A stretch of DNA of 26,603 nucleotides from Psammoneis japonica (lineage: Eukaryota), in the NCBI GenBank assembly GCA_008632985.1, contig QPGO01000255.1, forward strand, positions 62,001 through 88,603. Reading direction: 5' to 3'. Position 1 is the stretch's first letter. Every line of letters begins with the position of its first letter. Made by a program: the position numbers and the translations under genes. The notes beneath the pieces are model-generated. The model was not told the DNA's origin, did not search any database, and was given only the letters and a program-made list of their open reading frames with translations. Positions 5,073 through 26,603 of the stretch are shown here, in pieces.

Positions 5073-5188
5073 GTGAGTCAATCGTTCGGCTCATTGCATT
5101 GGTGGCTTTCCTTCCTTTGTTGCTTGTTCTTTTTGTTTGCCTGGGTTGTCGTTGTCTCACCATGACTTCCGTGCATGTGCCATTCCAG
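5073..5188 (+). other. Putative spliceosomal intron (phase 0)
   Basis: AAG|GTGAGT donor at 5073, T-rich body, TCTCAC branch-like motif at ~5155-5160, and TTCCAG acceptor at 5188 (alternative CAG at 5191). Splicing keeps the flanking frames joined. Confidence 0.65.
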
Positions 5189-5479
5189 CAGGTTCTTGAT
5201 CCCATCCAGCCTGTCATGCTGTTTGAAGATCCCAAGGCAACGCAGAAGTCACTGGAACAGATTGCTGGAGGTGAATTGGGTCATGAACAGGAACTGGTGC
5301 ACCTTGAATTGCTCAACCGTCGCCAAACCGAATGAGTCGAGGACCTTGCATCGAATGCAATCAAATGCAGGGAATCGGGACAAGACGAGCCGATTGAAAA
5401 AGAGAACGAAAGAACCAATCATGCGAGAGGTTGGGTCCTGTGGTTCATTCGTTGCTTCTTTGCAATCGCTTCATTGTGT

Positions 5480-8010
5480 CTGCTTGCTTGGTGCCATGTC
5501 TCTTTGGTTTCATCTTCTGAATCGAAACCGGTTGCGATTCGTCCTTTGGGCGGGATGCCTGTTGCATCGTCTGAGACTTTGATGCTCACTCCGTCCAAAG
5601 CCTCAAAAGCCATCATGATCGCCCCTTCCAGGGCACTTGCGATTGTTCCTTCCAAGGCATTGGCACTGACCATCCCGGACTCCGAGAAGTCTCTGACGAT
5701 TTGTGTTCCGCTTTGGAAGCCGGCATCATTGAAGGCCTTGGCAATCATTTCAAGTCAAGAGCTTGTTGCGTTGGAGGCTGCAACAAGTCGCGTTCCAACT
5801 CGGAAGCTTCTTCCATTGAGAGTGATTGCGCTGCATGTCCCGAGTCGAGGTGTTAGATTGTCGAGGGCTTCTTCTTTTCTTGTCTTGATTCAAGCGAGGC
5901 TCGACGATGCCACATGCGGCGAGGAAGAGGCTGGGCCAGTGACAAGTTGGTGGCCCGCCTTCTACGTTCTTGTCGCTCTCTTCGCAATCTACGTCTGGCT
6001 TCTCTTCTTCTGGCAGATTCACTCTTTGCCTCGAACGATGAACGACTCTCTCTTCCGACTGTCTTCACAATCGGGATGCACGGCTCTGGCGATCAGGCCT
6101 TTTGGTGAATTGATGGTGGCACCATCCAAGGCATTGGCAGTCGTTCCGTTGAAGGAATTGGTGCCTGTCATCCCAGATTTGAGCAAGGCCTTGTCGATTC
6201 GAGTTCCCGTGCCATCTGCTCCAACTGCACCCCTGATAAATTTGTTCACGTGGGTGCTTGTGATGGGCATTGTCTTGATTCTTTTTGGAGTTGTTTGGAA
6301 TCAAAACACGCCTTGTGACAACGAGGAAGGAAGGGATCTGTGCATTCTTCGTGACGGAGACAAGGAAGCTCAGTTCTGGATCGAAGATGTCAAGGAAGTC
6401 AAAGAACCACGATTCTTGCTCTTTTGGATTCGACATTTCTTTGCTGTCGGTTCCTGGATTTTCTTCGTCTGGTGTCTTGCCTCGTCTCCTCGACCAATGT
6501 TCCATTCTGTGAGCTTGTCGCCATCTCATTCTCGACCGACGTCTCTCATGTTGCCCACCGTTGGTGACATGATGACTGTGTCATCCAAGGTGCTTACGAG
6601 AGCGCCCTCAAATGCCGCCCTGATTGTCCCTTCTAAGGCACTGGCGATCGTTCCATCCAAGGCATTGGCGCTGACCATCCCGGAGTCCGAGAAGTCTCTT
6701 GCAGTTTGCGTTCCACTTTGGAAGCCGGCGTCATCGAAGGCACTGACGATCGTTTCAAGTCGTGAGCTTGTTGTGTTGGAGACCGCAGCAAGTCACATTG
6801 CAAGTCGCAAGCTTCTTGTGTCGAAAGCGATCGCAGCGCATGTTCCGAGTCAACACTCCAGGGCTTCTTCATTCATTTGCATGCCTCTGTCATGAGTGCT
6901 GGTTGCAATCGGTTGTGTCTTCATTCAAAAAAGATTCGATGATGCCAGGTGCGGTGAGGAAGAGCCTGGACCAACGATGACTTGGTGGCCTGCCTTCTGC
7001 CTTCTTGTCGCTCTCTTCACAATCTGCGTCTCGCTTCTCTTCTTCTGGTGGTTCCACTCTTTGCCCCGAACGATGAGCGATGCTGTCTGCCGGCTGTCTT
7101 CACATTCAGGATGTGCGGCTTTGTCAATCCGGCCTCTTGGTGAATTGACGGTTGTGCCATCCAAGGCCTTGATGGTCATTCCGTCGAACGCGTTGGCACC
7201 GATGATTCCGGATTCGAGCAAGGCCTTGTCGATTCGAGTCCCAATTTTGGGGCATGCGGCCGCTGCATCTGTTCCAAATGCCGCATCAATTCATGCACAG
7301 AGTCAGGAACACGTGCTGTCAGCCCCATCTACATTCCAGATAATTCCTTCGAAATGGTTGCTTGTGATTGGGCTTGTCTTGACAATCATCATTTGGCTTT
7401 CTTGTGCTCCAACCATGCCCAGTGACATCGATGAAGTGGCGACTCGCCGAGTGCTTTGCGATGGAGACGAGGAGGCTAAGGTGTGGATTAAAGACGACAA
7501 GAAATTCAAAGAACCACGAAGCTTGCCCCTGCTGATTCGTCTTTTTCTTGTTGTCAGTTCCTTGGGCTTTCTGGTCTTGCACCGTGCCTCTTCTTCACGA
7601 TCGATGAGCGGTTCTGTGGCGATGCCGCCATCTCACTTTGGATCGACGGCTTTGGTGGTTCGTCCAAGAGGTGAACTGATGATTGTTCCTGGCAAAGCTG
7701 TCATGGTTGCTCCTTCCAAGGCCTTGGTTGTTGTTTTGTCCACGGCTCTGGCTCTGACCATTCCGGATTCCCAAAAGTCTCAGGCTGTTCGTGTTCCACT
7801 TTGGAAACCGGCATTGTCTGAGGGATTGGTGATCATTTCAAGTCGGCAGCTTGTTGCTTTGGAGGCCATCACAGATCGTTTTCCGCCTCGGAAGTGTCTT
7901 GCATTGAATGCTTTTGGGCTTCACCTTCCGAGTCGAGCTGTTGTGATGTCGAGGTCATCTTCATCTGCTTTGATCAACGCGATTTGGTTGCTGGCAATGG
8001 GGCTTCTTTG
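5480..8010 (+). repeat. Internal tandem duplication, ~2.5 copies of a ~1.0-1.1-kb unit, itself built of related ALAIVPSKAL-type subunits
   Basis: VPLWKPA-encoding anchor at 5705, 6710 and 7793 (periods 1005 and 1083, both multiples of 3). The DDAxCGEEExGP..WWPAF block occurs at ~5900 and ~6935. Confidence 0.9.
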
Positions 8011-8739
8011 GATTGCAGTTCAAAATTGCATCGCTCCTGATGATGACAATGATGAAGAGCCTTTTCTAATTCATCGTGTACACGACGAAGACGCCGTTCA
8101 TCACCAAGACCCGATTCCGCCGCATCCCATGCCACCGGATCCTCCGATCCATCCTCAAGACCCAGGCCCTCCTCTTCAGGCCGAGGATGGCTTGCTGCCA
8201 CAAGATCCCCTGATTCAGCCGCCACCACTGCCACAAGACCCCCATGTTCCTCGTCAACACCCCATCCCAGTCCGCAGTTGTAAGCCACGAGTTCTTCGGC
8301 GCTCCGCCCGTCTTGACAATGCCGTTGGTAGCGTGCACCTTCATTCCGAGAACGCTTGCGTGCTTCGTCGGTCCTCGAGGTTCTCGTGCCGCACTTAAAA
8401 TGCCATTTCTCCAGTCTATTGCGGAAGCTGATAGCAGGCGGAAGCTGATGGCAGCCGGAAACTTCCTCCAGGGCACGTTCACGTGCATTCCTACCGTAAG
8501 GAGTTGGCCACAACTCTACGGCGCGGAGGGCCATTTGTTTGAGCGATTGTCCTGTCTTCAATGGAGCTTGCACGCACCTGCTGAGGCGGGGTAGGCATTC
8601 TTTTGTTTGACCTACAAGCTGCAAGCTTCATTGTTGATGTGCCACTTTTGTTCTTGCCTCGAGATGGAGACGGTATGTTGGTGCTGATTGTCGGACCCGG
8701 CAATTTGGGATATCGTTTTGTATTGTATTCGCATGTTGT

Positions 8740-9385
8740 TGTTGACGGGATTGCATTGCTGTTTCGCTGCGCCATCTTCTTGTTTGCTTTCGTCGTTGCT
8801 ATGATTTGTCATTGTTTTCGGATTTCGTATCGTATCGTTGTTGGAAGTGTGCTTGATGCTTGACCATGTTTGTTGCGTTGCAAATCATAATGTTGCGCTT
8901 CTGTGATTGCCGGTATCGTAGTCGATTTGCTCTTTTTTGCTTTGCTATTGGTGGGGCTCGTTGTCGTTGCTTTGCGGTTGTTATGCTTTTGTTTGCTGAT
9001 TAAGTGGCTGCAATCGTGCGTCTTTTTTTGTGTCGGCATTTGCGGGGTCATCGTCGATGTTTCTGCTGCTCCTTTTGCTGGCTGGCGGTGCTCTCATTGC
9101 CTGTGTTTGCGGGTTTGTTGTTTTCGCTTTGTATTCTTTGCTGCGGGGTTGCATATTACGTCGTCTTGCGTATGTTTTCTCGGTCGTCGTTGTTCTTGCT
9201 CCTGTTTGCTGTTGTTGTATGCTTTGTTTTGCATCGCTGTTGGAAGGTTTAGTCTTTCGTCATTGTCGTTTGCCACTGCCGATTAAGAACTTGTGTCCTT
9301 GACTTGCCAGTCCTTGCTACTCACATATTTCCCTTGTTATAGCTATGGTGGTATTCCGTCTTGATCCTCTAGCTCTCAAGAGGTG
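8740..9385 (+). repeat. T/G-rich dispersed repeat, copy A
   Basis: Shares TCGCTGCGCCATCTT, GCATTTGCGGGGT.ATCGTCGATGTTTCTGCTGCTC, CTGCGGGGTTGCA and TGTATGCTTTGTTTTG.ATCGC with copy B. The last two blocks also occur in copy C. Confidence 0.85.
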
Positions 9386-9409
9386 GTTGTCGGACCCTGC
9401 TTTTCCCAT

Positions 9410-9880
9410 GTTGTTGTTTGACTGCGGATTGTGCTGTTTCGTTTTGTATCGCTGCGCCATCTTGTTTTGTTTGCTGTCTTTTGGTTGCTATTCTTGTCAG
9501 TGTTTGCGGGTTTCGTTTCGTATTGTTGTTGGAATTTTCTTGATGCATGATTGTGTTTGCTGTGGTGCTAAATTACATTGTATTGTGCTTCTTTGATTGC
9601 GGGTGCATTATTTTGTGTTGCTTTGCTGTTGTCTTGCTTTTGTTTTTTGTTCCCTGATATAGTTGCTGCAATGTTTCGTTTTTTTGTACCTGCATTTGCG
9701 GGGTTATCGTCGATGTTTCTGCTGCTCTTGTCATTGGCTGCCTGGCTTTCGTTGCCTGTGTGTGCGTATTTCTTTTTTTCGCTTTGTATTCTCTCTGCGG
9801 GGTTGCACATTTCTCGATCGTCGTTGTTCTTGCGTCGCTTTGTTGTTGGTGTATGCTTTGTTTTGTATCGCGGTTGAAGG
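9410..9880 (+). repeat. T/G-rich dispersed repeat, copy B
   Basis: Collinear diverged copy of 8740-9250. Confidence 0.85.
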
Positions 9881-9934
9881 GTCGTCGATTGTTTCTGCTG
9901 CTCTTGTTGTTGGCTGCTTGGCTTTCGTTGCCCG

Positions 9935-11812
9935 CTACCGGCGGACTCAACCGGTCCCGCTGCCTCAACCGGTCCCGCCGGCTGACTGACGGACGCTCGC
10001 TAGAATTAGTACGTAGCCCTACGCACAAGCCGCCGCGATGGATGAGTTTGAGAGTGCCGCCACAACGCAATGATAACGCAAAGCGACTTCTTTCCGAAGG
10101 ACATGCGATACAATCCTACCCTTGAAGAAAGCTAGAATACTAGAAGCTATACAATCATATCTCTAAAGAACAACAAAATGCTATAAGTCTATAAGTCATT
10201 TCAATGGATTGCTTATCGTCGTCAACGGACAACGCCGAAGATGCCGCGACGAGTCGAAAATCACAAAAAAATTGATCTCTTACCTTTTGCGCCAAGTTCT
10301 ACTCTAGAGTGGCACTGTAGCACTCTAGAGAGTAGTAGCCCTAAATAGAGAGGCCATCCGCACGCACACCCACACTAACTAACTCTACCAGCGAGAAGAA
10401 ACAGCACGTTCGCCCCAACTCCATCTGTGCCCTGGTCCAAATTTCATCCATTGCACTTGTACCTCTCTACACCCGACTAGGAACTGAGTGCTCCAGGATC
10501 TGATTTCCCCATATGAGCAAAGAGTATCAAAAGATATCTGTCATGTAGAACATGGGCCTGGAAATGCCACTGCAAGCTTTAACGGTCAACGACAGTCACA
10601 CTGGAAAATGACAGGCAAAATGAAAATATGAGTGGAACAACGTACACAATAATAATCCATTGGGGTTACATGTCACAGTATACTCACTAGGGCACCTTTT
10701 AAATGTAGAGCTGAGTCGCCTTACTAATTTTTATGCCCCCAAGTAACATCAGCGGTTCGTGGCATCCGCGCATTCAAGAGGAGGCGATGAACCCGCCAAC
10801 ACAAGCCTCAACCTTCCCATTTTACCCATTGCAAAGCCTAGAGTCGTAGTTACACCACAAAGATCTCCCAAAATAACGTGGACAATATTGTGTCTTAGAT
10901 AATGATGATAATGCGGTTGAAGGGTAGGTGGAAAGGGTCAAAAAGGACCAGACACCTGTGCGCATGATCGAGACGCACCAAAAAAGGCTCGTGAGGTATG
11001 CAAGTTTCGTCAAAACGAGTCCAAAACTCAATCAATCACAACATGCTCACAGGGTTACCTTCTTTGGACTATGGAAAGGCTGTCTGACAAATGCCAATGT
11101 CGTGAGTATCCCCGAGACTCCATCGCATCGTTTTGTTCCCACGGCATGCACTTTCAAGAAATTGTTATCGCCGAAAAACGACATGCTGTGATTACGAGCC
11201 GACCAAGACCTTCAAAAACATATCAAGCTTGTCACAAGTCCAAATAAATAGTAAAAATAGATGTACCAAAAGATGTGGAGTGGGATGAAGCACAAGGCTC
11301 CCAAACGGATGCGCTTTTGTGATGACGACGACGTGAAAAAGATGCCAATATTGCAGATGCAATAATCGACCGTACGAGACGATATATCCTCCTATGAAGC
11401 TGTAACAAAGCACAAACAACATCTTTAGTGAGTAGATAAACGGTATAAAATGAGAAAACACAGAAAGAACTTACCACGGCAACGTTGTCGACCATTCAGA
11501 TGTCACCCGTACCGTGCAGCAATCGAGTCACGAGTCGAGGCACGCAACCGTTTGTACCGTGTGTCGCCACCAAAGCCCCCCAGGAAACCAAACCAATGCA
11601 TCAACCTATTTATAACAACGATAGAAAAAGATCCCACATGAAAGATACATCGACCCAACGATGTATGCCATGGCGAGATGCATCAAAGTACAACATGCCG
11701 TTTTCAATGCAAAATCGGGACCGGTTGAGTCCAATCGAATTATTCGACTCTCGTGCTTCACCGTGGTGAAATTTCAGTCACGGACGCCGGGACCGGTTGA
11801 GTCCTCCGGTAG
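9935..11812. mobile_element. Non-autonomous DNA transposon, 1878 bp, 25-bp terminal inverted repeats, CCCG target-site duplication
   Basis: Left TIR CTACCGGCGGACTCAACCGGTCCCG (9935-9959) matches the reverse complement of 11788-11812 with 1 mismatch. CCCG flanks both ends (9931-9934 and 11813-11816). Extra subterminal copies of the core lie at 9964-9977 and 11716-11732. No transposase ORF is recognisable. Confidence 0.88.
11400..11474 (-). other. Putative 75-bp intron inside the TIR element
   Basis: On the minus strand: GTG|GTAAGT donor, CTACTCACTAA branch-like motif and TTTGTTACAG acceptor. Confidence 0.5.
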
Positions 11813-12039
11813 CCCGTGTGTTCGGGTTTCTTGTTTTCGCTTTTTATTCTTTGCTGCGGGGTTGCATATTTCGTCATTCTGCGTGTGCTTTCTCGATCGT
11901 CGTTTTTCTTGCGTCGCTTTGCGTTTGGTGTATGCTTTGTTTTGTATCGCGGTTGGAGGGATTGGTTCTTCCTCTTTGTCGTTCGTCAGTGTCGTGTGTG
12001 AATTGGCGGTCATGTCTTGCTGCGCATCACCATCCTTAT

Positions 12040-12804
12040 CTACTCACCTTTCTTTCCCTGTTATAGCTTCGGTGGGATTCCCCCTTGTAAGACCGGCTCT
12101 CAAGACGTAGGACCAAGGTGAGTGCCTATATTTTCGTGATTGGATGCTTGTTGGTGCGTCTTACTCTTTTTGGTTGTATTCACTGGAGCCTCTACACCAC
12201 CATGTCAAAACATCCATTTCGAGACTACAATCGCCTTCAACTCAATCTGTCCCTCTCACGACGCTCTACTCCATCCACAACGTTTCATTTGTCACCACAA
12301 AACCTCCAAATCGCTCGCCCAATACCTCGAGTTCGTCCTGTCCGTCCTTTACTGAGTTGTTCTCTCTTCACCACGATTTCTCTATGATCACTCTCCACCA
12401 CCACAAATTCCTCTAGTTCGTCATGTTCGTCCTTTATCTCTCTTCCGACTCGTTACTCCCTCCACGATGTTTCATTCGTCACCAAAACTCCTTCACATCG
12501 TTCGTATTCGACATAAACCACCCCCTCACCTCCAATTCCTCCAGTTCGTCTTGTCTACTGTACTGTGTTCCATCTATTCTCCATGATCCTTCTCCACAAG
12601 CTGATCCTTCTCCACAAGCTCCAATACCTCCAGTTCGTCTTGTCCGTCCAGTGTTGCGAGCCGTCCATGCCACTCACTCAATCTACTCGCGAGTAGGGTT
12701 TTGCTAGGCGGTGACACTGAAGGTGAGTAGTGTGTGCTTTTGTCCTATCGTTGCCACATTATTTCTGTTTTCGCTCGTTTCACTAATCACTCGCTGTTTC
12801 TTAG
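12040..12804 (+). other. Chain of splice signals suggesting a multi-exon transcript without a long ORF
   Basis: Acceptor CTCAC..TTCCCTGTTATAG at 12066, donor AAG|GTGAGT at 12118, possible acceptor at 12696 or 12707, donor AAG|GTGAGT at 12723, branch CACTAAT at 12781, and acceptor TTTCTTAG at 12804. Confidence 0.45.
12265..12650 (+). repeat. Degenerate C/T-rich repeats plus an exact 18-bp tandem duplication
   Basis: AATWCCTCNAGTTCGTCNTGT at 12321, 12406, 12534 and 12623. TGATCCTTCTCCACAAGC at 12584 and 12602. Confidence 0.85.
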
Positions 12805-12876
12805 GTTTGGAGTGTGATCCTTCTTGGATTGGATCGCACTCCAAACCGCCGCTCTCTCACCCCCCCCCCCCCCCCC
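12804..12876. other. 17-bp-stem hairpin followed by a C17 homopolymer
   Basis: GGTTTGGAGTGTGATCC (12804-12820) pairs with GGATCGCACTCCAAACC (12831-12847), with one T:G wobble and a 10-nt loop. C run at 12860-12876. Confidence 0.85.
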
Positions 12877-14109
12877 AAGGTCTCCCTCCCTTGATCCCTC
12901 ACAGGTTCGAATTGGGCCGTAGCCTCATGTCGATACACAAGGTTTAAGTAACAGCGGGTCCCGCCCCGCGCCTTACGTTCCTCGAACAAAATGTGGACCA
13001 GGAGTTTATCGACATTTGGCTACGCGACTTTAGTAACCCTTGTCAGGCCGTGCCTTATCTTGTACAGTAGTGCATTGATAAGCTTTTAGAATATGAATAA
13101 GGAACTTCTTTCCTTGTAGGAGCCGGCTAAGGCAATTCAGTCTTCTTTGGATCTAGTTTAATAGCTTGAAAAAATGTTTCTCTAGTAAGCATGTTGAATG
13201 GTTACGTAACAAATCATCTGGTCCATGCCGATTTGTTACATCGTGCGATCGTCTATTGGCTCTTGCATTCGTGGGCGTCGAGGTACAACATGTAAACCCA
13301 CGTCTTCGTTCGTCTCCCTCTTCTTTAGATCTGCACGTCGACAGCCTCAATTTTTCCCTCGAACAGCTAGTTCCAAGATGCAAACGGAACAACGCTTTAC
13401 TCTCCTCTTGACAGTTTCCATACGTCATATCATGGAGTGTCCTTGCTATTCTGAATTGCATGCGCCATCGCCATTTTCCCGTGTCTTTGTTCTCCCTAGG
13501 TTTTCTGTTGCCGACGGCTGCCGACCTCCGTCCAATTGAAAGCACGTTTATGGAAACGCTGTGCCCAAAACACAAGTAAAAAGGGTGAGAAATCTGCATG
13601 AGACAAAACATACCTAAGAAATATGGCATAATAAAGCGGCGTCACGATGCTATAAATACCCAGTACTGCGTACCCAATCTCATTGCCGCACGGTCGCAAT
13701 TTTTAGTCGCAGAGTAAAATAAAAATGCTGCCAATTGTCACTTGGTAAGCTCATCATCCGCTTGGAAGACTAATCTGTGAGTAGTTCAGCATCTTCTGAT
13801 CGACTATGCAGGAAATGTCTTGAGTGTCTATTGCTTTAGTCGTAGCCTCAACCGATCCCTTGCTGATCGATCAACCTGCTTGGAAGCGCATCATCGCGGG
13901 TACGTCGACAAAGAGGGACCCATCTACTGACTTCGCGTGGGAACAATGGTGCGCAGCTCAAATGAATCAGCAGTTCAGGTGGCCGAGCAATTTGCATCAA
14001 ACCAAACTAATAGCCATCAAATAGCCCCTTTCCAACTTCTTTTTGTCTGCCTCCAGTCCTTCGCTTCTGCCTCTGCTGTCACAATTGGCGGCAGCTCCAG
14101 CCCGTCTTT

Positions 14110-14890
14110 TTAAACGCTCGTTTCCAATTCACGTTCCACGTCTTGTCTAGACTGTAAGGGTTGAGTTGAAGAAGCACCTCGTTTTACATTGACATGCAAC
14201 TGTCCTTCACTATCCTTGAACTGCGGTGCCAGCTGTTGCAACGTTTGTTCCCAACGCCCCAGCCGTACGGAAATCTTGCAAAATCCTGCGTGATGCATCC
14301 TCTGGACTCCCGCGGCACTTGGAATCCGCGAAACGAAACAACATGCCTTCTCGTGCAAGGAAACGAATCGATCCATCGTCTGTCGGCTGAAGCTCGAGAG
14401 GATCAAAGCCACAGCGTTCCTTGACTTTGGCCTGCCAGTTTGCAAATGTTGTGTCTTTTTGACAATACCATGAAGCTCGGTAAATCTCGTCGCCCAAGTC
14501 AAACTTATGACAACCGTATGCGACAACAGAGGGGGGTTCCATACTATCCGCGTCATCTTCGTCAAAGAAGGGGTTCGGATACTCAATGTCCTTTCATCAA
14601 GGGCAGAGCTAGAATCGCCATACACGTGTCGGTCAGAGTTTTCCTCGAGACTGACTTGTGGGTTAAGGTGAACGCCGTCCGAGCGCAGGTTTGTATCCCA
14701 CCGGAATGGGGAAAATGTTGCAAATCAAGAAGAGTCGACCGGACATAACACCAATCATTTTTTTTGTTGGCCATTGCTGTAATTTGTAACGTTCCCTGCG
14801 AAGACGTCCACCAAGACGCCGCCTCAGAAGCGAGACTTCTCAGAGGCGTCAAAAGCCAAAACAGTTGCATTACGCCAATACCGCAATGCA
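14110..14890 (-). pseudogene. Probable frameshifted gene relic of unknown function
   Basis: Protein-like stretches in alternating frames: ...EENSDRHVYGDSSSALDE, then KDIEYPNPFFDEDDADSMEPPSVVAYGCHKFDLGDEIYRASWYCQKD... No recognised domain. Confidence 0.3.
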
Positions 14891-15378
14891 ACTCATGGAC
14901 GGAAAGGACACCACGCGGTTACAATAGATCCAATGAAACGTTGCGATAAATCCACAGAGCCTGAGAATCCTCGACCGGGCGTTCAAACAAAACAAGCGGA
15001 GGTAAAACCATGGTTGTCGAAATATATCTATTTGATGAATGGAACACCTGCGCAGCTACGGAAATGGCGACAAACGAAGCTCGTAAGTCTATCATCGAGC
15101 AGTCAAAAGGGATGTATCAAACAACAGATGACTTACCGGTGGTGCTGTAAAATGATGCATGTGTTATATAAGTACCGGAATTGCAACACGGGTGAGCAAC
15201 ATATTTTAGCAACAAGGCTGCTGCCTGGACGAACAGCATGCGTAGTTGAATGACGATTTCAAACATTTATGACCTGTTTCTCCCATTTCTAAGGATTGAC
15301 GTGGTTACAAGTAGAGATCAAGCTTCATGATTGTATTTTACGTGAACGATGTGGATCGGACAAAGACAAGATAAGAAG

Positions 15379-15930
15379 TTAATAGGTCGACGTACCTGCT
15401 TCAGCATCGCTCCAATTACTCTCGTGAACAGGTTCCTCGTCAACAACCTTTGCTACGGCTTTGCTCGTATTGGTTAGCTCGGCCGGCGAATGAGTATCCA
15501 GTGCTGTATTGTAAGAGAGTTGCAAAGGTAAGCTGAAGCACAAAGAGAAGACAAGAAGCAGATAGATACACGCCATTCATCAGAAATCATCTCCACGACG
15601 GTCCATGTTGTAGTCTTGTAGAAGTCGTAATAGAAAGAAGGATTCAACGCCAAGGACACCTGCACATGATTCAGGATACTGGCAATACCGGTAGCCCTTG
15701 AAGTTGATTTGATTGTCGAAGTTCCGACGGCAAATGCTTAGCATATCCTCCAAGTTGATTTCTCGATCCAAGAAGTACGCTACAACTTGTACCGGTGTCG
15801 TCATGGCCATGGTCTTGCCCTCGTCATTGGCTCCAAACAGCTAGGCAGCGATTGTATTCAAGGCAGCTCCTCCTCTCGCCAAATCGTCCACCGAGTAGGG
15901 CTCATCCACCTTTGCCATGTTGTCGAGGCC
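15379..15930 (-). pseudogene. Possible disrupted gene fragment ending in a hydrophobic segment
   Basis: Consecutive short protein-like ORFs (15580-15810, 15474-15665, 15379-15576) in shifting frames, with an in-frame TAG upstream at ~15841. Confidence 0.25.
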
Positions 15931-16242
15931 ACAACGTATCCTTAGTATTCCCGAACACCCGTCTTGGAGTTTCTTACTTTGCGGTGTCAAGAGAGAGTCG
16001 ATCTATAACATATAGCAAAGAAAAAAGCGACAGGAGGGAAGTTGTAAGCAGATATACGGAGAGAAACCTTCCTGACCAGCATATGTACTTCCGGCCATCA
16101 ACAAAGTAGACTGCCGCAGCAACGAGAATGCAGTGTCAAAATACCTACGTTTAAATCTCGGAGTGCAGGTTGTACGCTATCACGAATTTCTACATTTGCG
16201 CTCGAGAGATTACTGAGAAGGATTTGTCGGCATGATCAAACG

Positions 16243-16521
16243 TTACTCCGTTCGTCGGTTCTTCTTCTTCTTCAAGGCTGTATTCATATCGGCCAAGGCA
16301 GAGAAGGCATCTGCGCTTGCCGTAGCACTGTCACCACTGCTGCTCTCCGATAATGCCAACAAGAATGAAACAGCATGGCCATGGCGACACTGCACCGTCG
16401 TTGATACAACACCAAAACCTGTCGCTGGATACAACAGCAATACTGTAACAGCAATGGCGTCGTTGCTCACCACTTCGCTTCGTCGGCGGAACATTCGCAT
16501 CGACATTATGGCACCTGGCAC
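16243..16521 (-). CDS. Possible N-terminal fragment of a gene with a targeting-peptide-like start
   Basis: 92-aa ORF with a hydrophobic stretch followed by a Ser/Thr/Ala-rich segment. No homology recognised. Confidence 0.2.
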   Translation of the reverse strand: MPGAIMSMRMFRRRSEVVSNDAIAVTVLLLYPATGFGVVSTTVQCRHGHAVSFLLALSESSSGDSATASADAFSALADMNTALKKKKNRRTE

Positions 16522-18099
16522 TGTCGTGTGGTCACCAAATAGGTTATGAATTCCAATCGCGCGAATTTGCCTGCGCTTTGTACAATATCGTCAGTGTGTA
16601 TTCAGATTTATTCTTTCCTGAAGACTGCAAATGACATTGTCATTACCGCGGTCTACATCATTGTTGAACTATATAAATCGCATCATGCATTTCAAACATA
16701 CAGCGCCTGACATTGTACATTCGAAAAAATCCGGAGGTTTCTCGTGTTCTTCAGTGTAGAAAATCGAGGGAGATGATGATGATGATGCTTTCATTTTATT
16801 TGAGAAAGGACAGTCAGATCAAGATGTCAGCAGATCTGAGACCTTACAGTTGTCAGTGCCGGCATGTCATGCGGTCTTGTGGATGTGAAGCACAGCTTCT
16901 AGAAACTGGATTCTGTGCTTTCTCCGTGACTCACATTGAACTTTTTCGTGCTGTTGAACTTTTTCTTGAGCCTTCAGCAGTGTTGGAGAGGCTCGGTGCG
17001 AACCAATCATTTTGGTGAGTGCTGGCGGTCCACCAGAGTGAACGGAAATGGAGCTCCCTTTCAAACCAGGAAGTGTCACTCAAAGCAAGACCGCGCCTTT
17101 GCGCTCCACATCGCCATGGGCTGGATTGGAACACATTGCTTTGAAATTGATTTCGTGCCATGCAGGTTCATTGGATTTAAGCCACATCAAGCGTGCTGCA
17201 CTTGTGTCAGCGTGAAGCATGGCTCTGCTGGTGCTTGTGGACAAAAGCAAAAGCGAAAGGCCTTGGTTGGGCTTTCTCGACAAGACTTCTGCTGCGCACT
17301 TGGAGAACACATGCAACCAAACCAATGCACGACAGCTGGCCCCACCGACAAGAGTTGTCAAGGTTGACATGTGCCATCATCAAATGGCAATTTCACTTTG
17401 GAGCACAGTTGCGAACATTTGGACAAGCGGAGAACCACGCATGCCATGTGGTGGAAAAGATCTTGGGAAGAAATTCTGATCCCGTCGGTGGAATTGGATC
17501 CAAACATGAAATGATTGAGATTGTTGTTGGCAACCTTGCATGGAAGCAGCTTGGCTGGAATCCCACCACAAGTCGCTTGGTCAATGCAGTCTGCTGCACA
17601 CTGGCACTCCTTTCAACAATGATGACCACGCTGCAAAACGTGACAAAGGCGCTCACTTGGCACATGCTGTGCTGCTTGGAATTGGACAGTGCTGGTGGAG
17701 ATGTCTGACTCGAGAAAGCAGTCTCTCAAATTGTTGGGTCAACTTGGATTTGCCAGAGGATGCAATGGACAGAGAAATCACAAGGGCGACCCTGACGAGT
17801 GGACATCAAGAAAACCATTTCTCGTGGTTTGCCAGCATGACCAACTCTCTTGCTGGGTCACTCGCCTGGTCACTCAACAACCGCCCCAGCAAAGAAATGA
17901 CCCCCTGAGTGACAAAACGTCATCAACAACTGTCTGACCCCTCTGCCAGCCAGTTGCCTCTAGCCTCAGTTTGGCTTTGCCATGTGATTTCTCAAAATTC
18001 CCCGGGATTGCCACCTTTCACCCTGTTTTTCTGCGGGAAGGGTGAACTTGCCATTTGTCACATGTGGGCTAAATGCGTGCATAAAAAAATGCATTGGCA

Positions 18100-20720
18100 A
18101 CTCCCGTGCTTCCCCTCTTGCACATTTCTGCACGTTCTACATGCCAGGATGTGCGGCAGGAGCCAGACAATCCCCTCCTCCTCTGGACCCGCCTGAGATC
18201 TCTGAAGACGACCTGCTCTCAACACTGAGCAAATGCAAACCAGGAACTGCAGCTGGCCCTTTTGCACACTCAACAGACTTTCTGAAGGCCCGCTCCTTTT
18301 ACAAAACATCTGCCCCCACCAAAACACAAATCCGTCCCCACCTCGTCCCAGCCTTTCGAGACTTTCTCCTCCTCCCACTCACCAACTCTGTCCCTCCCGA
18401 TGCATGCACCATCACTCCTCTCCTCCAACTGCTTTGTTGCCCTTCACAAAGACCCAACCAACCTCAACAAGCTCCACCCCATTGGATGTGACACCACCCT
18501 GCATCGCACAGCAGGCACCCTCACCATGACACAAAATGTCTCCAACTTCACTGACTGCCTCCTTCCTGATGGCCAATTCAGCATCGGTGTAAAAAAGGCG
18601 GGCTCAACCACCTCATTCACACTGCTCACGCCAACATTGAATGATGTCTCAATGTGTCTGTTCCATCGCATGCCTTCCTCTCCCTTGACCTCACAAACTT
18701 TTTCAATGAATGCTCCCGAGACACCTGTCACCAACAACTTGACACCATCCCCCAAATGCAACACACCTGCTGCACATCTTCAATCTTTTCTGCAATGACC
18801 CCAACAAATGCTGGTGTCATGACCCCACTGGCACTTGGCGCTCCTTCCTTCAATCTGAAGGATTCTGCCAAGGATGTCCTTTTGCCTCTCCTTTTGTGGC
18901 GCCAGTCCTCAGAGTCGTCCTCAAACAACTCAACCTTGAACTCTGCCAATGCCTCCCCTCTTCCAACATCACATCTGCAGCTTCCCTCATTGACGACACC
19001 AGCACATGGCTGCCCCACACCTGACTGCCATGGTTCATTGAACATCTCACTGAAATCACCCCTGCACGGTGTCCACCTCAATTGTGACAAAACAACAGCT
19101 GTCCTCACCTTGATCACCAGTGATTCCCCTCTCCCACATCTCCCTCCTGCACATGCCACTGCCTTGCACAAAGCTCTCTCCCTGCTCAACCCTGCCAATG
19201 ACCCCCAACTCTCTCTCCTGAAATTGCCACTGGCAACCGCTTCCTTGGCTGCTTCCTTGGCCAGCCCATCGGAAGCGCGGAATTTGCAAGCACCTTTCTT
19301 GAACAAAAAGCTTCCAAGTTCCAAACCAACCTCAACTGCCTTTTGTCCTGGCTGCATGACATCCAAACAAAAAGCACTCTCTGCCATGCATGTGCCACAT
19401 CCTCCCTTCTACACCTCCTTGCCTCTGACATCTGCTGGCACAACTTTGACCCAGACAACCCCGTTCACACCGCGTGGACATCACCTTTCCAACAAGACAC
19501 TCAGTGCTGCTGTCACAACTTTCTCCAACACCCAACACCTCACCGCTCACCAAGACCCTCTTCCACCACACACATTGCTCCTCTCTCACCTCCCTGCATC
19601 TGCTGTGGCATTGGTCGTCAATCATTGACCATCAGCACCACACCCTTCTTTGCTGCCCAACTGACCCATTCCCTCCGATGCATGTGCAACCCACGGCCTC
19701 ACCACCTCTGCTGATGAACCCCAACTCATGCCCCCCTTCTGTGCCTGTTCCCTCTGCACATGGGCTGCATTGAGACAATCCCTCCATCTGCATCAAGCAC
19801 TCTGTCACCATGGCAATGCTTTGCTGCCACACCTTGACCCCCTGCCTCCCTCTCTTCCTGCTCCAGTTGAATCTTTTCCACTCAAGACGCTCCCTCACGC
19901 CATGTGTCACCTGCACTTTGCCAGCCAACTTAACCACCCGCCATGGCCCGCCACACATCACCACTGCACTCTCATCCATCCTTTCACCCTTGACAAGCCT
20001 CCCATTGCACACTCTCTCCTGTTCCACAGCTTCCCAATGTCTGTTGCCTTCCATCTTCCAACTCACACCACAAGAACGTAAACTGCGCTTGCCCATCTCC
20101 TCTGATCAATCCACCCCCATCCTGTGCCCATCTTGCTCTGGCACAGTTGACCCACATGGTGATCATTCCTTTTGTTGCCACTCTCTTGGTCACAAAACCA
20201 CCCCATCCAACTCCCTGCGTGATGGTCTTTTTGCACTTCTCCAAACTGTTGGACCCCTGTCCGGCCAATGTGCCACCTCCTTGGACAATGTGGTGCTGCT
20301 GTCATTGCTTCCTCAAATGATGCTGGCATCTGCCTTGCACCGTTCACCATTGATCACCTTGGTTCAACCGGCTGCTTTGCCCATTGCCTCCTCTTTGGTG
20401 ACACCCAAACACATCCCCTCCCTCCCCCTCCCTGGAACTTGGAATCCTCTTTACACCGCCCATCTGCTTGTGATGCCTGTGCCAATGCCCAACTCTCCCC
20501 ATCGGGCCTTCTTCCCACTGCCACATCTGCCTGGAAAGCCATCACCTTGACCAGGTTTGGTCTCACACACCACACCACCACCCCAAGCCAGTGGGCCTTT
20601 CAGAATCTCAGTCTCACAGTTGCCAAATCCCTCACTGGCCAACTTCTTTGCTGCTCCATCAAACTTCAATCACAAGTTGCAAATCCAACAAGAGAACCCT
20701 CCCATTCCCCACCTGCATGA
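18100..20720 (+). mobile_element. Degenerate non-LTR retrotransposon, CRE-like (RT, Cys/His knuckle, C-terminal tail)
   Basis: Frameshifted motifs in the expected order: KPGTAAGP, FVALHKDPTNLNKLHPIG, LLPDGQFSIGV, LSLDLTNFFNECSR, QSEGFCQGCPFA, LIDDT, GVHLNCDKT, RKLRLPI...CPSCSGTVDPHGDHSFCC...SNSLRD, and PFTIDHLG. The endonuclease core appears deleted near 20280. Confidence 0.8.
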
Positions 20721-20984
20721 CACCATTTCATCCCACTGTGCTGTCTGCACTCCACACCACACCACTGGGTGACATTGCACACACGTGACCTTCTCACACA
20801 CATGCACTCCAAACTGTTCATGACAAAAACAATCGACCGACCACAACGAAAATGGGCAACACGCCATGGCACATTTGCAACACATTTGTGATGGCTTTTG
20901 CCTGTCAATCATGACACCGTTCAATGCACTCAACAATGTCAATTGAACAGGATCTGTGGCACAAAACACAAGATGAAACATGAT

Positions 20985-21355
20985 TGCTCATGTGCAGAAT
21001 GCCAGTGCAATTGAGGCATCAGTCGTCAGTTGTTCTTTTGTTGTGAAGTCCAAAATGCAAGCCATGAGGTGTGCATGCAGCAAAGGCCAAGGCAAAAGTA
21101 GAACCACGCATGGCCAATGACAACAACATGTCAGATTGAATAGTCTCCCTCATTCTTCCAATTGACACATCTTGCGTGCAGAATGAAGGGGATTGTTCAG
21201 ATCAGCTCTTGTGTCATGCAGTCATGAATGCAAGCCATGAGGCATCTAGAGTGAAGGACAAGGCAAAATTAGAACTTCACATCGCTGACAAAAATGTGTC
21301 AGATTGATTGACAATGTCATTTTTCCCTTGGACCTGTCTCATGTGCAGAATGATG
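20985..21355. repeat. Degenerate tandem repeat, ~170-185-bp period, ~2.2 copies
   Basis: GTGCAGAATG at ~20992, 21176 and 21343. ATGCAAGCCATGAGG at 21055 and 21228. CAAGGCAAAA.TAGAAC and TGTCAGATTGA each occur twice. Confidence 0.8.
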
Positions 21356-21782
21356 CATTGGATCTTTTTTCCTTCTTGTGTTGTGTGGTCCCAAATGCCA
21401 ACAACAAGTGCTCCAGAGCAAAGGCTGGGGCACAGATGGAGCCGCATGTGAGCAATGTCAATGTGCATGATTTAATGGCAAAGTTTGTTCTTCCCTTGCT
21501 CCACCACAAGAGGCCACTTTGTGTCAATTTGTTGATTGCATCCATGGTCGTTGCCCGGCTGTGCTGGATGAAAATGAGAAAAAGGCACACCAGCCTAACC
21601 CAGATCAAACAGGAATCACCGCAATGCACTCATTTTTTGTTCCCCTCCCCAAGCCCGTTTGGTCATTCCTTCCCACCAAATTGCCCTCATTTCCCAGAAA
21701 TTCCCCAAAAGGGCAGGGCAGTTCTCTCTTGCCCTTGCCATTTTGGGGGATGCCAAATGGGTAAAACCAAACTGAGCCTCTG

Positions 21783-22011
21783 GCAATCAAATCACAAGTC
21801 GAGGCATGCAATTGTTTGTGCCACACTGAAGGGCGACCAAAGCCCCCCAAGAAGCCATGCCAGTGCATCAAGCACTTCACAACAACAACAGAAAAGACTC
21901 CCCACAAAAAAAAAGTTGACCCCTCTGTGTCTGCCATGGTGAGATGCATCAAAGTGTGTCAACATCAACAGGTGCCGTTTTGTGCAAAATCTGGAACAGT
22001 CCAGTTGAGTC
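21783..22011 (+). mobile_element. Mutated relic homologous to the right subterminal region (11519-11732) of the TIR element
   Basis: Collinear matches including ACCAAAGCCCCCCA, TGCCATGGYGAGATGCATCAAAGT, TGCAAAATC and GTTGAGTC. Confidence 0.85.
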
Positions 22012-23383
22012 ATTTGCTTCTTGGATGAAGGTCAGATGATGTCCATGAGCCACCCTCATTTTTAAAGGCTGCGGCTTCTTATGTGAGATCTTTTGCAAGT
22101 GAAGCTGCTGCACGGCTTCCTGCATGAGACCTTTTGTGCACACATGGAACTTTGCTCAACTTGCGATCAGCAAAACTTCATCCAACAGCCAAAGCAGAGC
22201 GAGTGCACAATTGTCAGAAACTGGCAGAGAGATGCATCATGTTGTTTTTTGCAGTGTGCAGCCAACACCTTGTGAGCACAAGTCAAGTGCTCACTTGACG
22301 CCAAACCAGCAAGCCCTTCAGGAGGAGTGGGGCCATCGAGTGCAGGCTCAGTTTGAGGCAGGCTCAGTTTCAGTTTTGCGAAGATCTCTGCAAGATCCCA
22401 ACACCAGCTGCAAGGAGAAAGATTGCAAGGAGCAAGCCAAGGTGCGCAGAAGCATTCATGAAAAAGCTTTTTATCAAGAAGAGCAAGCCACAGAGCAAGC
22501 AGAGTGAAACCACGAAAACCAGCTGTTCCTCAACTTTGTGAAAGAATTTTGCAAGAGCAATGCGTGCAACAACAGTGATTTCAACAGCTGCCTTCGTGCC
22601 TTTGCAGCTGCCAGCATGGCTCCTTCTGATGGCAATGATGTTGGCTGTGAGTTCATCTTGTTGACTGTTTTTGGTGTTTTGCAGCAACCCAATTTCTGAC
22701 AACACAAATTGCTTCTGCAATCTGCTTCTCAGAATTGGCGGATGAATGCATGAAGATGATGTGGGTGACGATGCAGCTCACTGTGTGGAAGGTGAAGAAA
22801 AGTGTTGCAACCGTTTGATGGATTTTGTTGCCTGCATTGATCATGTTGCCACCAACCTCAACCAAGACACTGGGTTGCAGTTGAAGTGCTGTTCTCTTGC
22901 TTGCTTGAACAGAGACACAGCTTTCATTCAGAGAGGGCTCATTCTCAGAAGTTGTGTTTTTGCCCCCCAGTCTTTCAAAGCTTGACCACATTCCTGTCAA
23001 AAGTTGACAGCTCCATGTGACACTCTCTTTCCCTCTCATGCAAATCATCATCATCAGCTTTGTTGTCATTCATGGGAACATGAGTGAGTCTGGTTTGTCT
23101 GTTGAAAAAGTCTGCAGAAGCCATCCGACATCAGACCTTTGACTCCATGTCTCTTTGTGGACGATTTCAGAAACTCGGCCTGTTCCACCACTTCAGACAC
23201 ACACGTGGCATCAATTGTTTGCTGTGAACAAAGGGCTGCCTGAATGGCTTTGAGGCATGCAAACCAAAGCTCATCTTTTGGCAATGGCACAACCAATGCA
23301 ATGCATTGGAGTGCATCCATTGAATCTTTTCACAACCCCACACCATCAAAGTTCACTTGTGCCGCTGCCCCCCAAGATGACTG

Positions 23384-23920
23384 GGACATGGCTTCTGTGT
23401 CACAGCACGCTGAAGAGCAATGCAAATCTTCACCACTGAGAAAAGTGCTTTGTCAGCCTTGTTCTGTCTTCTTGGTTGCAAATGTGGCTGCACTGTGTCC
23501 TCCAATGCCATTGCCAAAGGAGGTGGTCACCAAGTTCTTCCCTTCATCCTGCAACTGCATGACAGAACAAGTGCACAACCACGGTGATTTTGTTTGTGAA
23601 CAACAATGCATCCTCCTGCAGCAACTCTGTGGTGTTGGTGAGCCTGCTGCCCCCATGAGATGAGGACATGGCTTCCATGTGGCACTTGTTGTGCTGAAGA
23701 GCAATGCAAAAAATCTCAACCACCATGCATTGCGCTTTGGCAGCCTTGTTCTTTTCAGGCGCAAACATGTCAGCACTGTGCCCTCCAATGCCGTTGCCAA
23801 AGGAGGTGGTTGCCAACCAAGTTCTTTTCTTTCTCCTTGTGCTGCATGACAGAGCAAGTGCACGGCAGCAGCGACTTTGTTTGTGAACAGAAGCATTCCC
23901 TCCTGCAGCAACTCTGTGGC
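23384..23920. repeat. Diverged tandem duplication, ~280-287-bp period
   Basis: GGACATGGCTTC, GCTGAAGAGCAATGCAAA, TTGCCAAAGGAGGTGGT, CTGCATGACAGA.CAAGTGCAC and CTCCTGCAGCAACTCTGTGG each occur twice in the same order. Confidence 0.9.
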
Positions 23921-24099
23921 ATCTGCAAACTGTCGAATGTTGCAAAACAAGAAAATGCGCACAATGGCAGAACCCTGGGAGCAGAAAAACAGAGTGTCTT
24001 TCTTCCGAACTTTTTGCAAATTGCTCTGAATGATTTCCATGCCAGCACTGCTGAAACCCACTTGCATCAAGGACCCGATGCAACTGACGGCAGACATCA

Positions 24100-25470
24100 G
24101 AAACAAACCAAGCGCAGGGAAAGATGGAAGTGTGAGTTTAAAATGTCATTCCACCTGAAGTGATTCCACAACTGCGCAAACTGCAACTTGCGTTTCCATT
24201 CTTTTCAATGCTTCCTTTGTCCAGCACAAGTTCTTTGTCAACAATTGATCTTCTTTGTTTGCAAAGTCTTTGCAATGCACACTGCTCTGACAACCCAGTG
24301 GGTCATCTGCAAGCATCCCGGGCAATTGAGTCATTTGCTCAATGGGAGTCACAGCCAGTGTCATGACCAGACCCACAAATGCTGTGACTCAAAAGAGCCA
24401 AATGAGCAAAACACAAATGGTGGTCAGGAGTTTCACAAGAGCAGCATCACAAATGCACTCACAGTTGGTGAAGCAGCCTGTGGCAGTTCCGCTGTAGATT
24501 GGACTGTCCTTGTTGCCCTTGACTGCAATGTGGAAGAGCTCCCAGTCCCCAGGAATTCACAGACCATGCTTGGCACTTGTTTGCACAAACCAGGCACAGA
24601 GCTTGTAAGAGCAGCATTGAGAGCCTGATTGCAAACCCTCCAATGGCCATTTGACCATGAAGGACAATCATCATGGACAGCCACGTGGTGTCATTTCTCA
24701 GAACAGGCAAAGAATGGCGATGCATTGTCCCATCAATTCACGCATGGTGCCACCAACTTGAGACTCTTGCATCTTGGCATCAAGATTTTGACAAGCCCTT
24801 CTTGACATTGTGCTGGTGCTTCCAGAAAGTTTCTTTTGAACAGAGCCATCAGCAAATTTGCTTGCCGCATGAGCCAACGGATCATTCCTGGAAGCTGTGT
24901 CCTGCACGTTCTCAGGAAGATTGGTGGCAGCAATTTCTTTTCTTCGTTTGGCAACACACCAATGTGAATCAAAAATGACACCACAAAGCCCTTGAAGCCC
25001 TTTTGTTGCATTCTGGTGTGTTGCTTGGCTTGAATGGTCAAAATGGCTCCCAGGGCCAAGATGTTCCATGCATCGGCACTCCCAATCCTTTTGGCGGCAA
25101 CAACTTTCTTTGGGCTCCTTCTGCTTCATTCCAAGTTTGTTGTGAAAAGGCTTTCATCTTCTCACAGCAACACATTGGTTTGAGCCATTGGAACATTGAA
25201 TGTGCCACAGACACCTTGACACAAGCAGTGCCAGGTTTTGACATGCAGCTCTTTCTCCCAAACACGTCCACAAGCAGAATTCCATCCCATGTGATTTGGT
25301 GCATCACAGCAAGAGGCTCAAAATGAGCAGTTCCTGAGTCTTGGTTGTTCCAACTAGAATGACATCCATCTTGACAATCTGATTTTTGTGACAAAGCATG
25401 GTCGCTGGTGCCATCCAATGCCACTGCAAAATCCTTGGACTTGAGTGCATCAAACATTGACAATGTGATG
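24100..25470 (-). mobile_element. Possible hAT-like transposase relic
   Basis: Weak motif resemblance only: FAVALDGTSD (~25401-25430, like the first catalytic Asp motif) and LKLVAPCVN*WD (~24727-24762, like the xRW motif if the TGA derives from CGA). Confidence 0.3.
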
Positions 25471-25924
25471 TAAAATCCAGCTCATGCGTGACCTGCTGAT
25501 TTGCCCTGTTGTTCCTTGGGTGTCCACATGGTGAAATCAAAAGCAGAATGAGCTGCGCCCTCATGCAGAGCACTTTGCCACCACTGCAAGTCTTCCTTGG
25601 CCCACACCACCGTCAATGTGCCACCAACAATGGGCTCTCAGCTGGCTTGCTGCTGCAACTGACTTGAGTCTTCTCTCTTTGCTGCATGCTTTGCTTCTTC
25701 TTCATCATCAATGATGGTGGCTTCATCCACAATCTGCTTTGCAGGTGAGGTCACAATTGCCCTGAATTTATGAGCATCATCCCAAGCACCTTCTCTGTTG
25801 AATGTCCACTGATGAATGACAAATTTTGGCTGGCTGAAAACATGCTTGTTGATTCACTGTTTCACTTGCAAAGAGGAATGAGGTTGTGCATTGCTTGGGT
25901 GGGAGAGGGCAACGCATTCTGCCT

Positions 25925-26603
25925 TGAATGACAAAAATGACATGTCCAGCATGAGACTTGACAGATGCACAAGATCCTGTCTGTCCTCAACAGAGCAGAG
26001 TCTCACAAAATTGGCATCAACACGCCAGCCGATTTGTTGATCTGTGGCAGGGACTGGGATGAGCCCTTTGTCAGCTGCGCCATTCAAGTGTTGAAGAGTG
26101 TGTTTGACAGTGACAGCGTGGGAGGCCTTGAGAAGTGCAGGAGAACCAAGTGACTTGATGGGTGGTGCAAGCGATGTCAAGATGGCTGTCAGACACTGGA
26201 TGCTGCGTCAATGTGCCAACCACAGATCGGCAGTTGCAAGGTTTGTTGTTGCAGACTGGCAGCATTGGGACAATCTAACGGATGTCTGGGACAGATGACA
26301 ATCGTGTGCCAGATGAGAAAGAAAGTGGGCAAAGGAGAGATCATTGGATCTCTCCATGCTGTCCATGCCAGTCTGTCTGACACAAGGGAGTGCACTCCCC
26401 ATCTCGGATGTCTGTCATGCCAAGAGATGGGCCTTCTGTGTCACTGCCAACAGAACCAGAAAGTGCAGGAGTGGGAGCTCCATTGCAGTTTTCCATCATG
26501 GCTGCACAAAGAACTTTCTCAATGAGGCCAGTCTGGGTGAGCAGGAATTGGTCATTTTCCAGCTTCTGGATCTTGACACACAAGAAGTTGCCGACTTCAC
26601 CTT
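25925..26603 (-). mobile_element. Degenerate Ty1/Copia LTR retrotransposon pol fragments (RT C-terminal half and start of RNase H)
   Basis: GEVGNFLCVKI...LLTQTGLIEKVL..MENCNGAPTP; CRSVVG..L...SHLDIACTTHQV; KASHAVTVKHTLQHLNGAADKGLI; VDANF..LCSVED.QD; and, after a frameshift, SVKSHAGHVIF. Confidence 0.88.

Follow-up and report, generated by a model that had tools for sequence, protein, structure and literature searches.

Probable TpA-to-CpA/TpG hypermutation together with CpG decay in a repeat-rich domain of the diatom Psammoneis japonica

The same repeat segment carries ordinary numbers of TA and CG dinucleotides at one place in a stretch of diatom DNA and almost none at another, and this raises the question of which copy has changed, by what process, and what singles out its surroundings. 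The window, by which we mean the whole 26.6-kb stretch (26,603 nucleotides) that was analysed, is nuclear DNA of the diatom Psammoneis japonica. An earlier note on this DNA had presented the two copies as an unmutated and a mutated version of one element, forming an internal before/after pair, and had concluded that the family loses TA and CG only when it lies inside a depleted domain.

The baseline for composition was taken from a conserved single-copy gene and from the middle of the window. The gene is an open reading frame on the minus strand (2471-4201) for the diphthamide synthesis protein DPH2 (Pfam PF01866, E = 4e-65); its top matches are 58% identical, and the best matches named to organism come from the diatoms Fragilaria, Seminavis and Nitzschia at about 50%. 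TpA O/E is 0.53 and CpG O/E is 0.99 in this coding sequence, and the middle region (8400-17000) gives 0.62 and 1.01. Two domains depart from these values. Domain 1 (4363-8280) holds 14 TA in 3918 bp, with TpA O/E of 0.07 and CpG O/E of 0.82, while domain 2 (16901-26603) holds 28 TA and 161 CG in 9703 bp, with O/E values of 0.05 and 0.27 respectively. CA and TG have O/E values of 1.61 and 1.95 in domain 2, where they number 1116 and 1007, and of 1.40 and 1.31 in domain 1. Domain 1 is sharply bounded on both sides and domain 2 on its left, to within about 100-300 bp in each case; domain 2 reaches the window end, so that it measures at least 9.7 kb and its right border lies beyond the window. Comparisons of dinucleotide deficit and surplus used as reference the undepleted middle taken as 8281-16900. 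Against this reference, the deficit of TA and CG in domain 2 amounts to 8.1% of dinucleotides and is nearly matched by a surplus of CA and TG of 7.1%. GC is 0.513 in domain 1, higher than the 0.469 of the middle region.

Repeats are also found in the DNA of ordinary composition. A 156-bp tandem repeat (seven copies, 87% matches, 437-1539) lies within an open frame at 3-1892, and a perfect 75-bp sequence is present twice at 1960-2108. In 1-kb windows over these two repeats TpA O/E is about 0.4-0.6, like the single-copy baseline; a tandem arrangement is thus not in itself enough for TA erasure. T-rich dispersed and tandem repeats, 72-77% identical, were observed in the undepleted middle (9099-9384, 9751-9881, 11809-12108 and 8728-9248/9403-9882), where the AT skew falls to -0.65; one of their copies directly follows the undepleted copy of the segment considered here.

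This segment, of about 235 bp, occurs as copy A (11519-11751) and, inside domain 2, as copy B (21783-22021), both on the plus strand and both delimited by BLAST and global alignment. Self-BLAST of the window matched 11519-11731 to 21783-22011 with 71% identity over 232 columns (E = 7.8e-25), and more sensitive settings extended the match to the full coordinates, where 173 columns out of 247 agree (E = 5e-31). The pair that the earlier note described is thus real, and its right end, placed at 11695 and 21960, was about 55-60 bp too short. Homology starts abruptly at 11519/21783 and fades near 11751/22021. With sensitive BLAST nothing else in the undepleted middle resembles any part of the two depleted domains; a search of the window by nhmmer with a two-copy profile brought up no further copy, and the conserved blocks of the pair gave 0 matches in metagenomes. 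The flanks of the two copies share no similarity, including 11300-11518 against the left flank of copy B, and because they are unrelated copy B is taken to be a fragment of a larger family unit around copy A. The segment is a non-coding repeat, and all frames of its region are closed on the minus strand. We considered the pair as an RNA gene and rejected it: no Rfam match was obtained at the gathering threshold over the whole window or at E up to 1 over 11200-12200, no tRNAs were found, and folding gave z-scores of -0.03 and -1.8.

Copy A has 9 TA and 16 CG, whereas copy B has 0 TA and 3 CG. The O/E values in copy A are 0.58 for TpA, 1.29 for CpG, 1.14 for CA and 1.32 for TG, and those in copy B are 0.23 for CpG, 1.63 for CA and 2.15 for TG, at equal GC (0.468 and 0.469). 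Among ungapped dinucleotide columns, 2 of 22 TA or CG of copy A are retained in copy B as against 127 of 196 other dinucleotides (Fisher p = 4e-7). Nine of the 16 CG of copy A read TG (6) or CA (3) in copy B and 2 are kept, and of its 9 TA four read CA, one or two read TG depending on gap placement, and three read AC, AA and TC. A letter-by-letter check bore out the local comparisons of the earlier note: the four differences between 11609-11628 and 21876-21895 are three TA>CA and one CG>CA, the seven between 11519-11558 and 21783-21822 are four CpG transitions, one TA>TG and two other transitions, and the changes GGCG>GGTG and AAAGTAC>AAAGTGT are present in the alignment.

These changes are part of a much larger divergence. 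The alignment has 225 aligned columns with 52 substitutions (31 transitions and 21 transversions), a divergence of 23%, and 22 gap columns. Read from A to B, 13 of the 52 substitutions are TA>CA, CG>TG or CG>CA, and none belongs to these classes in the reverse direction; with local re-alignment 15 fall in the class of TA>CA/TG and CG>TG/CA. The other 39, including all 21 transversions, and the 22 gap columns are unrelated to the processes proposed below. Copies A and B are old copies. They do not form a clean before/after pair, because of the 23% divergence, the indels, the small number of changes of the TA/CG class and the three TA sites that read AC, AA and TC, and the labels "unmutated" and "mutated" were to this extent overstated.

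The surroundings of the copies were compared with contigs of two public runs, here called X1 and X2. X1 comprises 141 Mb of contigs, the longest of 315 kb, and contains 73% of the sampled words. Its depth places copy A within a multi-copy family (11300-12027, where 11300 is the start of the examined stretch), since the summed depth is about 4000 over 11300-11663 and 2145 over 11664-12027, whereas single contigs have 55-65; position 11608 is covered by 29 contigs. GC in the kilobase around copy A is 0.46-0.48. Although multi-copy, this family is undepleted; being repeated is thus not enough on its own to draw the depletion. Next to copy A lies an intron-like stretch on the minus strand (11400-11475) with GT..AG bounds, which is skipped in X2: two contigs with a depth of 1908 join 11399 to 11475, and the ends read CT..AC on the plus strand. 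X2 contigs also skip 13559-13673, again GT..AG on the minus strand, and X1 carries the unskipped form at 13204-14086. Since its contigs skip such GT..AG-bounded stretches and X1 does not at 13204-14086, X2, which is recorded as "DNA?", resembles RNA or a transcriptome. The DNA beside copy A thus looks to be transcribed and spliced, as judged from these contigs; no convincing protein frame was found across the first junction (11400-11475). X2 has no contigs over 17852-22200, and a third run, X3, has none over the stretches compared; these blanks carry no evidential weight.

Several unrelated segments lie within domain 2. They comprise a pair of multi-copy families, an insert of 2.8 kb and a stretch whose depth is that of a single contig. 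The insert (18049-20834, plus strand) was recognised from an X1 contig that joins 18048 to 20835, and it is strongly skewed in composition, with 38% C and 15% G. It is possibly a relic of a reverse-transcriptase element, as suggested by a protein atlas in which 26 of 30 matches were RVT_1 clusters (best score 0.92, 138 shared features), a result that we treat as a lead only. For the frame at 18645-19625, phmmer gave 0 matches at E <= 0.001 among 1.84 billion representatives. Pfam searches gave nothing relevant to the depleted domains in 12 ORFs of the window, no relevant match in any of 115 stop-to-stop frames (from 153 of at least 70 aa from position 4300 on, with 38 shorter or nested frames left out), and nothing relevant in 6 frames with the cut-off relaxed to E = 10. 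Neither Pfam nor phmmer thus confirmed a protein domain of a transposon or virus in the two depleted domains. The left flank of copy B belongs to a second multi-copy family (20764-21855, X1 summed depth 1460-2505), which is unrelated to the flank of copy A and contains an internal repeat (21034-21186/21207-21353). The stretch that follows (21856-22200) has an X1 summed depth of 68, near the single-contig value.

Domain 1 contains an open frame on the plus strand (5336-8395), in which 1019 codons are open with a single TGA at 6893. The frame contains 2 tyrosines in 1021 residues, and its TA density by codon phase is 0.7, 1.3 and 2.6 per kb as against 11-13 in DPH2. It has three internal repeats of about 1 kb each that are 67-76% identical, no Pfam match, and, for 5336-6892, no homologue at E <= 0.001 among 8000 candidates scored. 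Because domain 1 lost TpA (0.07) with CpG almost intact (0.82), the two losses are separable, and the frame suggests that TA erasure preserves open frames.

Taken together with the domain map, the pair upholds the view that the composition of copy B is not intrinsic to its family, as the same sequence bears TA and CG outside the domain and is TA-free and CG-poor inside it. Copy B matches domain 2, and copy A matches DPH2 and the middle region, so a bias by location is likewise borne out. In the claim that the family loses TA and CG only inside the domain, the contrast by location stands, and the word "only" goes further than one pair can carry.

The direction of change is less directly given. 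Read from A to B, substitutions fall in 23 of 49 columns of the TA or CG of copy A as against 29 of 176 others (4.5-fold, p = 3e-5). In the B-to-A reading they fall in 23 of 101 columns in CA or TG of copy B as against 29 of 124 others and show no concentration (p = 1.0), because copy B abounds in CA and TG, at which any transition yields TA or CG. Such a lack of concentration is also what would be expected if the ancestor had already been depleted like copy B, and if the lineage of copy A had escaped, amplified and regained TA and CG by undirected substitution. In simulations of 52 random substitutions on copy B, a mean of 8.5 TA was reached, with a probability of 0.49 of at least 9. One TA of copy A was demonstrably gained there as well: at position 11608 copy B has C, and so do the 29 X1 contigs and the two X2 contigs without exception, which makes the TA at 11607/8 a gain by transversion that is peculiar to copy A. 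At position 11705 the window reads CA and 6 X1 contigs read TA. The CpG content of copy A is the main obstacle to such a recovery, since the same simulations gave a mean of 9.7 CG and a probability of 0.018 of at least 16, or 0.004 jointly with TA. Recovery would also need nearly all of the divergence to lie on the lineage of copy A, as the joint probability drops to 0.00015 with three quarters of the divergence on that lineage and below 5e-5 with half on each. Moreover, the TpA and CpG values of copy A equal those of a single-copy gene, and a depleted ancestor would itself require the same erasing process. We therefore judge this history unlikely. In the opposite direction, random substitutions on copy A reached the state of copy B in 0 of 20000 simulations.

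The pair alone thus leaves its TA differences without polarity and is as a whole polarised only weakly, through CpG. Polarity rests on context, because depletion is domain-wide, copy A is at baseline and mechanisms of loss are known. We consider loss in copy B to be the likely history for several reasons. The depletion is set by location and is common to 9.7 kb of unrelated neighbours; the values of copy A equal those of the conserved single-copy gene (TpA 0.58 versus 0.53); and the deficit of TA and CG in domain 2 is nearly matched by its surplus of CA and TG. GC also behaves as predicted, being unchanged where both processes would have acted (copies A and B) and raised where only TA was lost (domain 1). 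Finally, loss processes are known for both TA and CG, and to our knowledge no process makes CpG. Repeats within a domain add a further observation on products: CA is set against TG in 26 of 46 adjacent double transitions as against 5 of 17 in control repeats, a count in which ancestral TA and ancestral CG are inseparable.

The reading that best fits these observations, and that we hold to be probable, is TpA-to-CpA/TpG hypermutation together with CpG decay of a repeat-rich diatom domain. Copy B would be an old fragment of the multi-copy repeat family of copy A, sited in a domain that is rich in repeats and measures 9.7 kb or more, in which two context-specific DNA mutation processes have come near to completion. 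The first would consist of A:T-to-G:C transitions confined to TpA (TA>CA and TA>TG), most simply by enzymatic deamination of adenine on either strand. The second would be decay of CpG to TpG or CpA, as deamination of methylated cytosine would produce. Copy A, which lies in undepleted DNA with transcript-like spliced forms in X2, would have retained an ordinary genomic content of TA and CG. Chromatin state rather than repetition may then direct the processes to their targets.

A change at the RNA level could in principle leave a similar mark, if transcripts that had been hyper-edited from A to I in an ADAR-like manner were reverse-transcribed and inserted, so that copy B arrived TA-poor. The possible reverse-transcriptase relic in domain 2, itself an atlas lead only, would suit this origin, and so would the 5'-U preference of ADAR, which fits a TA context and is discussed in the preprint of Mettrop et al. 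(bioRxiv 10.64898/2026.01.13.699255). The footprint, however, is not confined to an element: depletion is continuous over adjoining unrelated segments, including the stretch at single-contig depth. Both products are present in domain 2 and in copy B (4 CA and 1-2 TG at its TA sites), which is not the pattern of one strand, and domain 1 is a tandemly repeated open frame without retroelement features. We know of no ADAR outside animals, and consider this origin very unlikely.

The earlier note had named a RIP-like gain of TA in copy A as the scenario that would overturn its reading, and such a gain does not fit, since copy A has no TA excess and RIP makes no CpG. RIP in Neurospora and other Pezizomycotina makes TpA from CpA, lowers GC and makes no CpG. 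Had C-to-T changes at CpA created the TAs of copy A, copy B would retain the original CA and TG. Copy A does belong to a multi-copy family, four sites read TA in copy A and CA in copy B, and many diatoms are reported to have relatives of the RIP methyltransferase (DNMT4; PMC9998398). Nevertheless, TpA in copy A (0.58 versus 0.53-0.62) is not in excess and its CA and TG (1.14 and 1.32) are not depleted, its 13 extra CpG would be left unexplained, and the kilobase around it is not AT-rich. The anomalous composition lies on the side of copy B and extends over 9.7 kb; the anomalous copy has no TA, and GC is equal in the two copies, so the excess of TpA from CpA and the AT enrichment of RIP are lacking. 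Nor are all repeats affected, as the family of copy A, at about 60 times the single-contig depth, has normal TA and the repeat at 437-1539 is undepleted. We regard a RIP-like origin of these TAs as extremely improbable.

The hypermutation proposed here nevertheless resembles RIP: in both, transitions in a particular context would be concentrated locally in DNA that is non-genic or repeated, riddling its coding capacity and leaving neighbouring genes untouched. It runs in the opposite direction, erasing TpA, and unlike RIP it cannot create stop codons; domain 1 retains a frame of 1019 codons with one TGA. It also differs from RIP in having spared the multi-copy family around copy A.

The possibility of an artefact, either base-calling or polishing errors at modified bases (heavily modified DNA can give systematic consensus errors in long-read assemblies) or a chance similarity of the copies, is negligible, since X1 contigs agree with the window inside domain 2, the match of the copies has an E-value of 5e-31, and no such artefact makes the 21 transversions and the indels between them.

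The locus would add a new lineage to a type of local hypermutation that has only recently been described. In mutation-accumulation lines of Bigelowiella natans, an integrated NCLDV and an integrated virophage together gained 231 mutations, of which 230 were A>G or T>C changes, each of them at a TpA, and the mutation rate of this integrated viral DNA was about 1000 times that of the genome, as reported in the preprint of Mettrop et al. (bioRxiv 10.64898/2026.01.13.699255). The same preprint describes clusters elsewhere in the genome that are depleted in TpA and enriched in CpA and TpG, defined by thresholds of at most 0.43 for Rho TpA together with at least 1.52 for Rho CpA+TpG, notes that TpA-depleted coding sequences are enriched in transposon domains, and proposes an ADAT2-like deaminase. 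Domain 2 (TpA 0.05, CA 1.61, TG 1.95) passes these thresholds. The dinucleotide signature is that of the B. natans data given there, with TpA lost and CpA and TpG gained, on both strands, over kilobase-scale regions beside normal DNA.

The two cases differ in several respects. The host is here a diatom, a stramenopile, whereas B. natans is a chlorarachniophyte and thus a rhizarian. Erasure is near complete here (TpA 0.05-0.07), as against a Rho TpA of 0.45 given for the NCLDV region in the preprint. In domain 2, although not in domain 1, it is combined with a strong loss of CpG that is unlike B. natans. Here repeats and a tandemly repeated open frame would be the targets, and no viral gene is recognisable among them. 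Direction and rate were measured in the mutation-accumulation lines that the preprint describes; for the diatom they are deduced from composition and homology. Full-text searches naming diatoms or algae brought up no report of TpA erasure from diatoms; a paper that surfaced under diatom hypermutation (PMC9258296) was irrelevant to it.

The second component has a more familiar counterpart in the CpG decay of methylated transposons, and transposon methylation is reported in diatoms (PMC9998398). Domain 2 and copy B match such decay with CpG O/E values of 0.23-0.27 and a surplus of TG and CA. The combination of CpG deficit and TpG/CpA surplus was not observed in domain 1, where CpG is 0.82. CpG decay cannot explain the loss of TpA, which domain 1 underwent at that CpG level.

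A wider proposal, which we offer tentatively and would not yet favour, is that diatoms possess a DNA mutator directed to chromatin domains that rewrites TpA to TpG or CpA, presumably by adenine deamination, and acts domain-wide and independently of the decay of methylated CpG. Its targets would be chosen otherwise than by copy number, since the multi-copy family around copy A, for which X2 suggests transcription, is spared. If this were true, TpA erasure would, together with Bigelowiella, be a widespread genome defence in SAR lineages that mirrors fungal RIP. If domain 2 is rightly read as hypermutated, the TpA-erasing signature is present, far more completely, in another major lineage of algae that is only distantly related to Bigelowiella, and this would argue for a conserved, enzyme-driven DNA-editing defence over a single-species oddity. 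TA-free domains would then mark the targets of the process, and a comparison of domain 1 with domain 2 would separate TA erasure from the decay of methylated CpG. Families that, like this one, are represented within such domains as well as beyond them are the material with which the process could be polarised and dated genome-wide. As TAA and TAG stops are erased and none is created, TA-free domains will also yield long spurious or fossil open frames in annotation.

The depleted text of domain 2 can be followed in the contigs of X1, which is possibly from the same sample as the assembly. One contig of 998 nt covers 21666-22200, including copy B, with 2 differing letters in 535 nt, and contigs reproduce 18004-20511 (2.5 kb) with 9 differences and 1 gap, which argues against an assembly artefact. 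Of ten listed differences between the window and X1 in domain 2, nine set TA or CG against CA or TG, and in eight of these nine the window holds CA or TG. At 22080-22081, near copy B, the window has one of the few TAs left there, and the only X1 contig covering the site reads TG. Over 50 bp at 17723-17771 the window departs at 7 places from a second X1 contig, whose depth is roughly half that of its surroundings; at 5 of the 7 the window has CA or TG and the contig has TA or CG. This contig may represent a less mutated allele or a paralogue.
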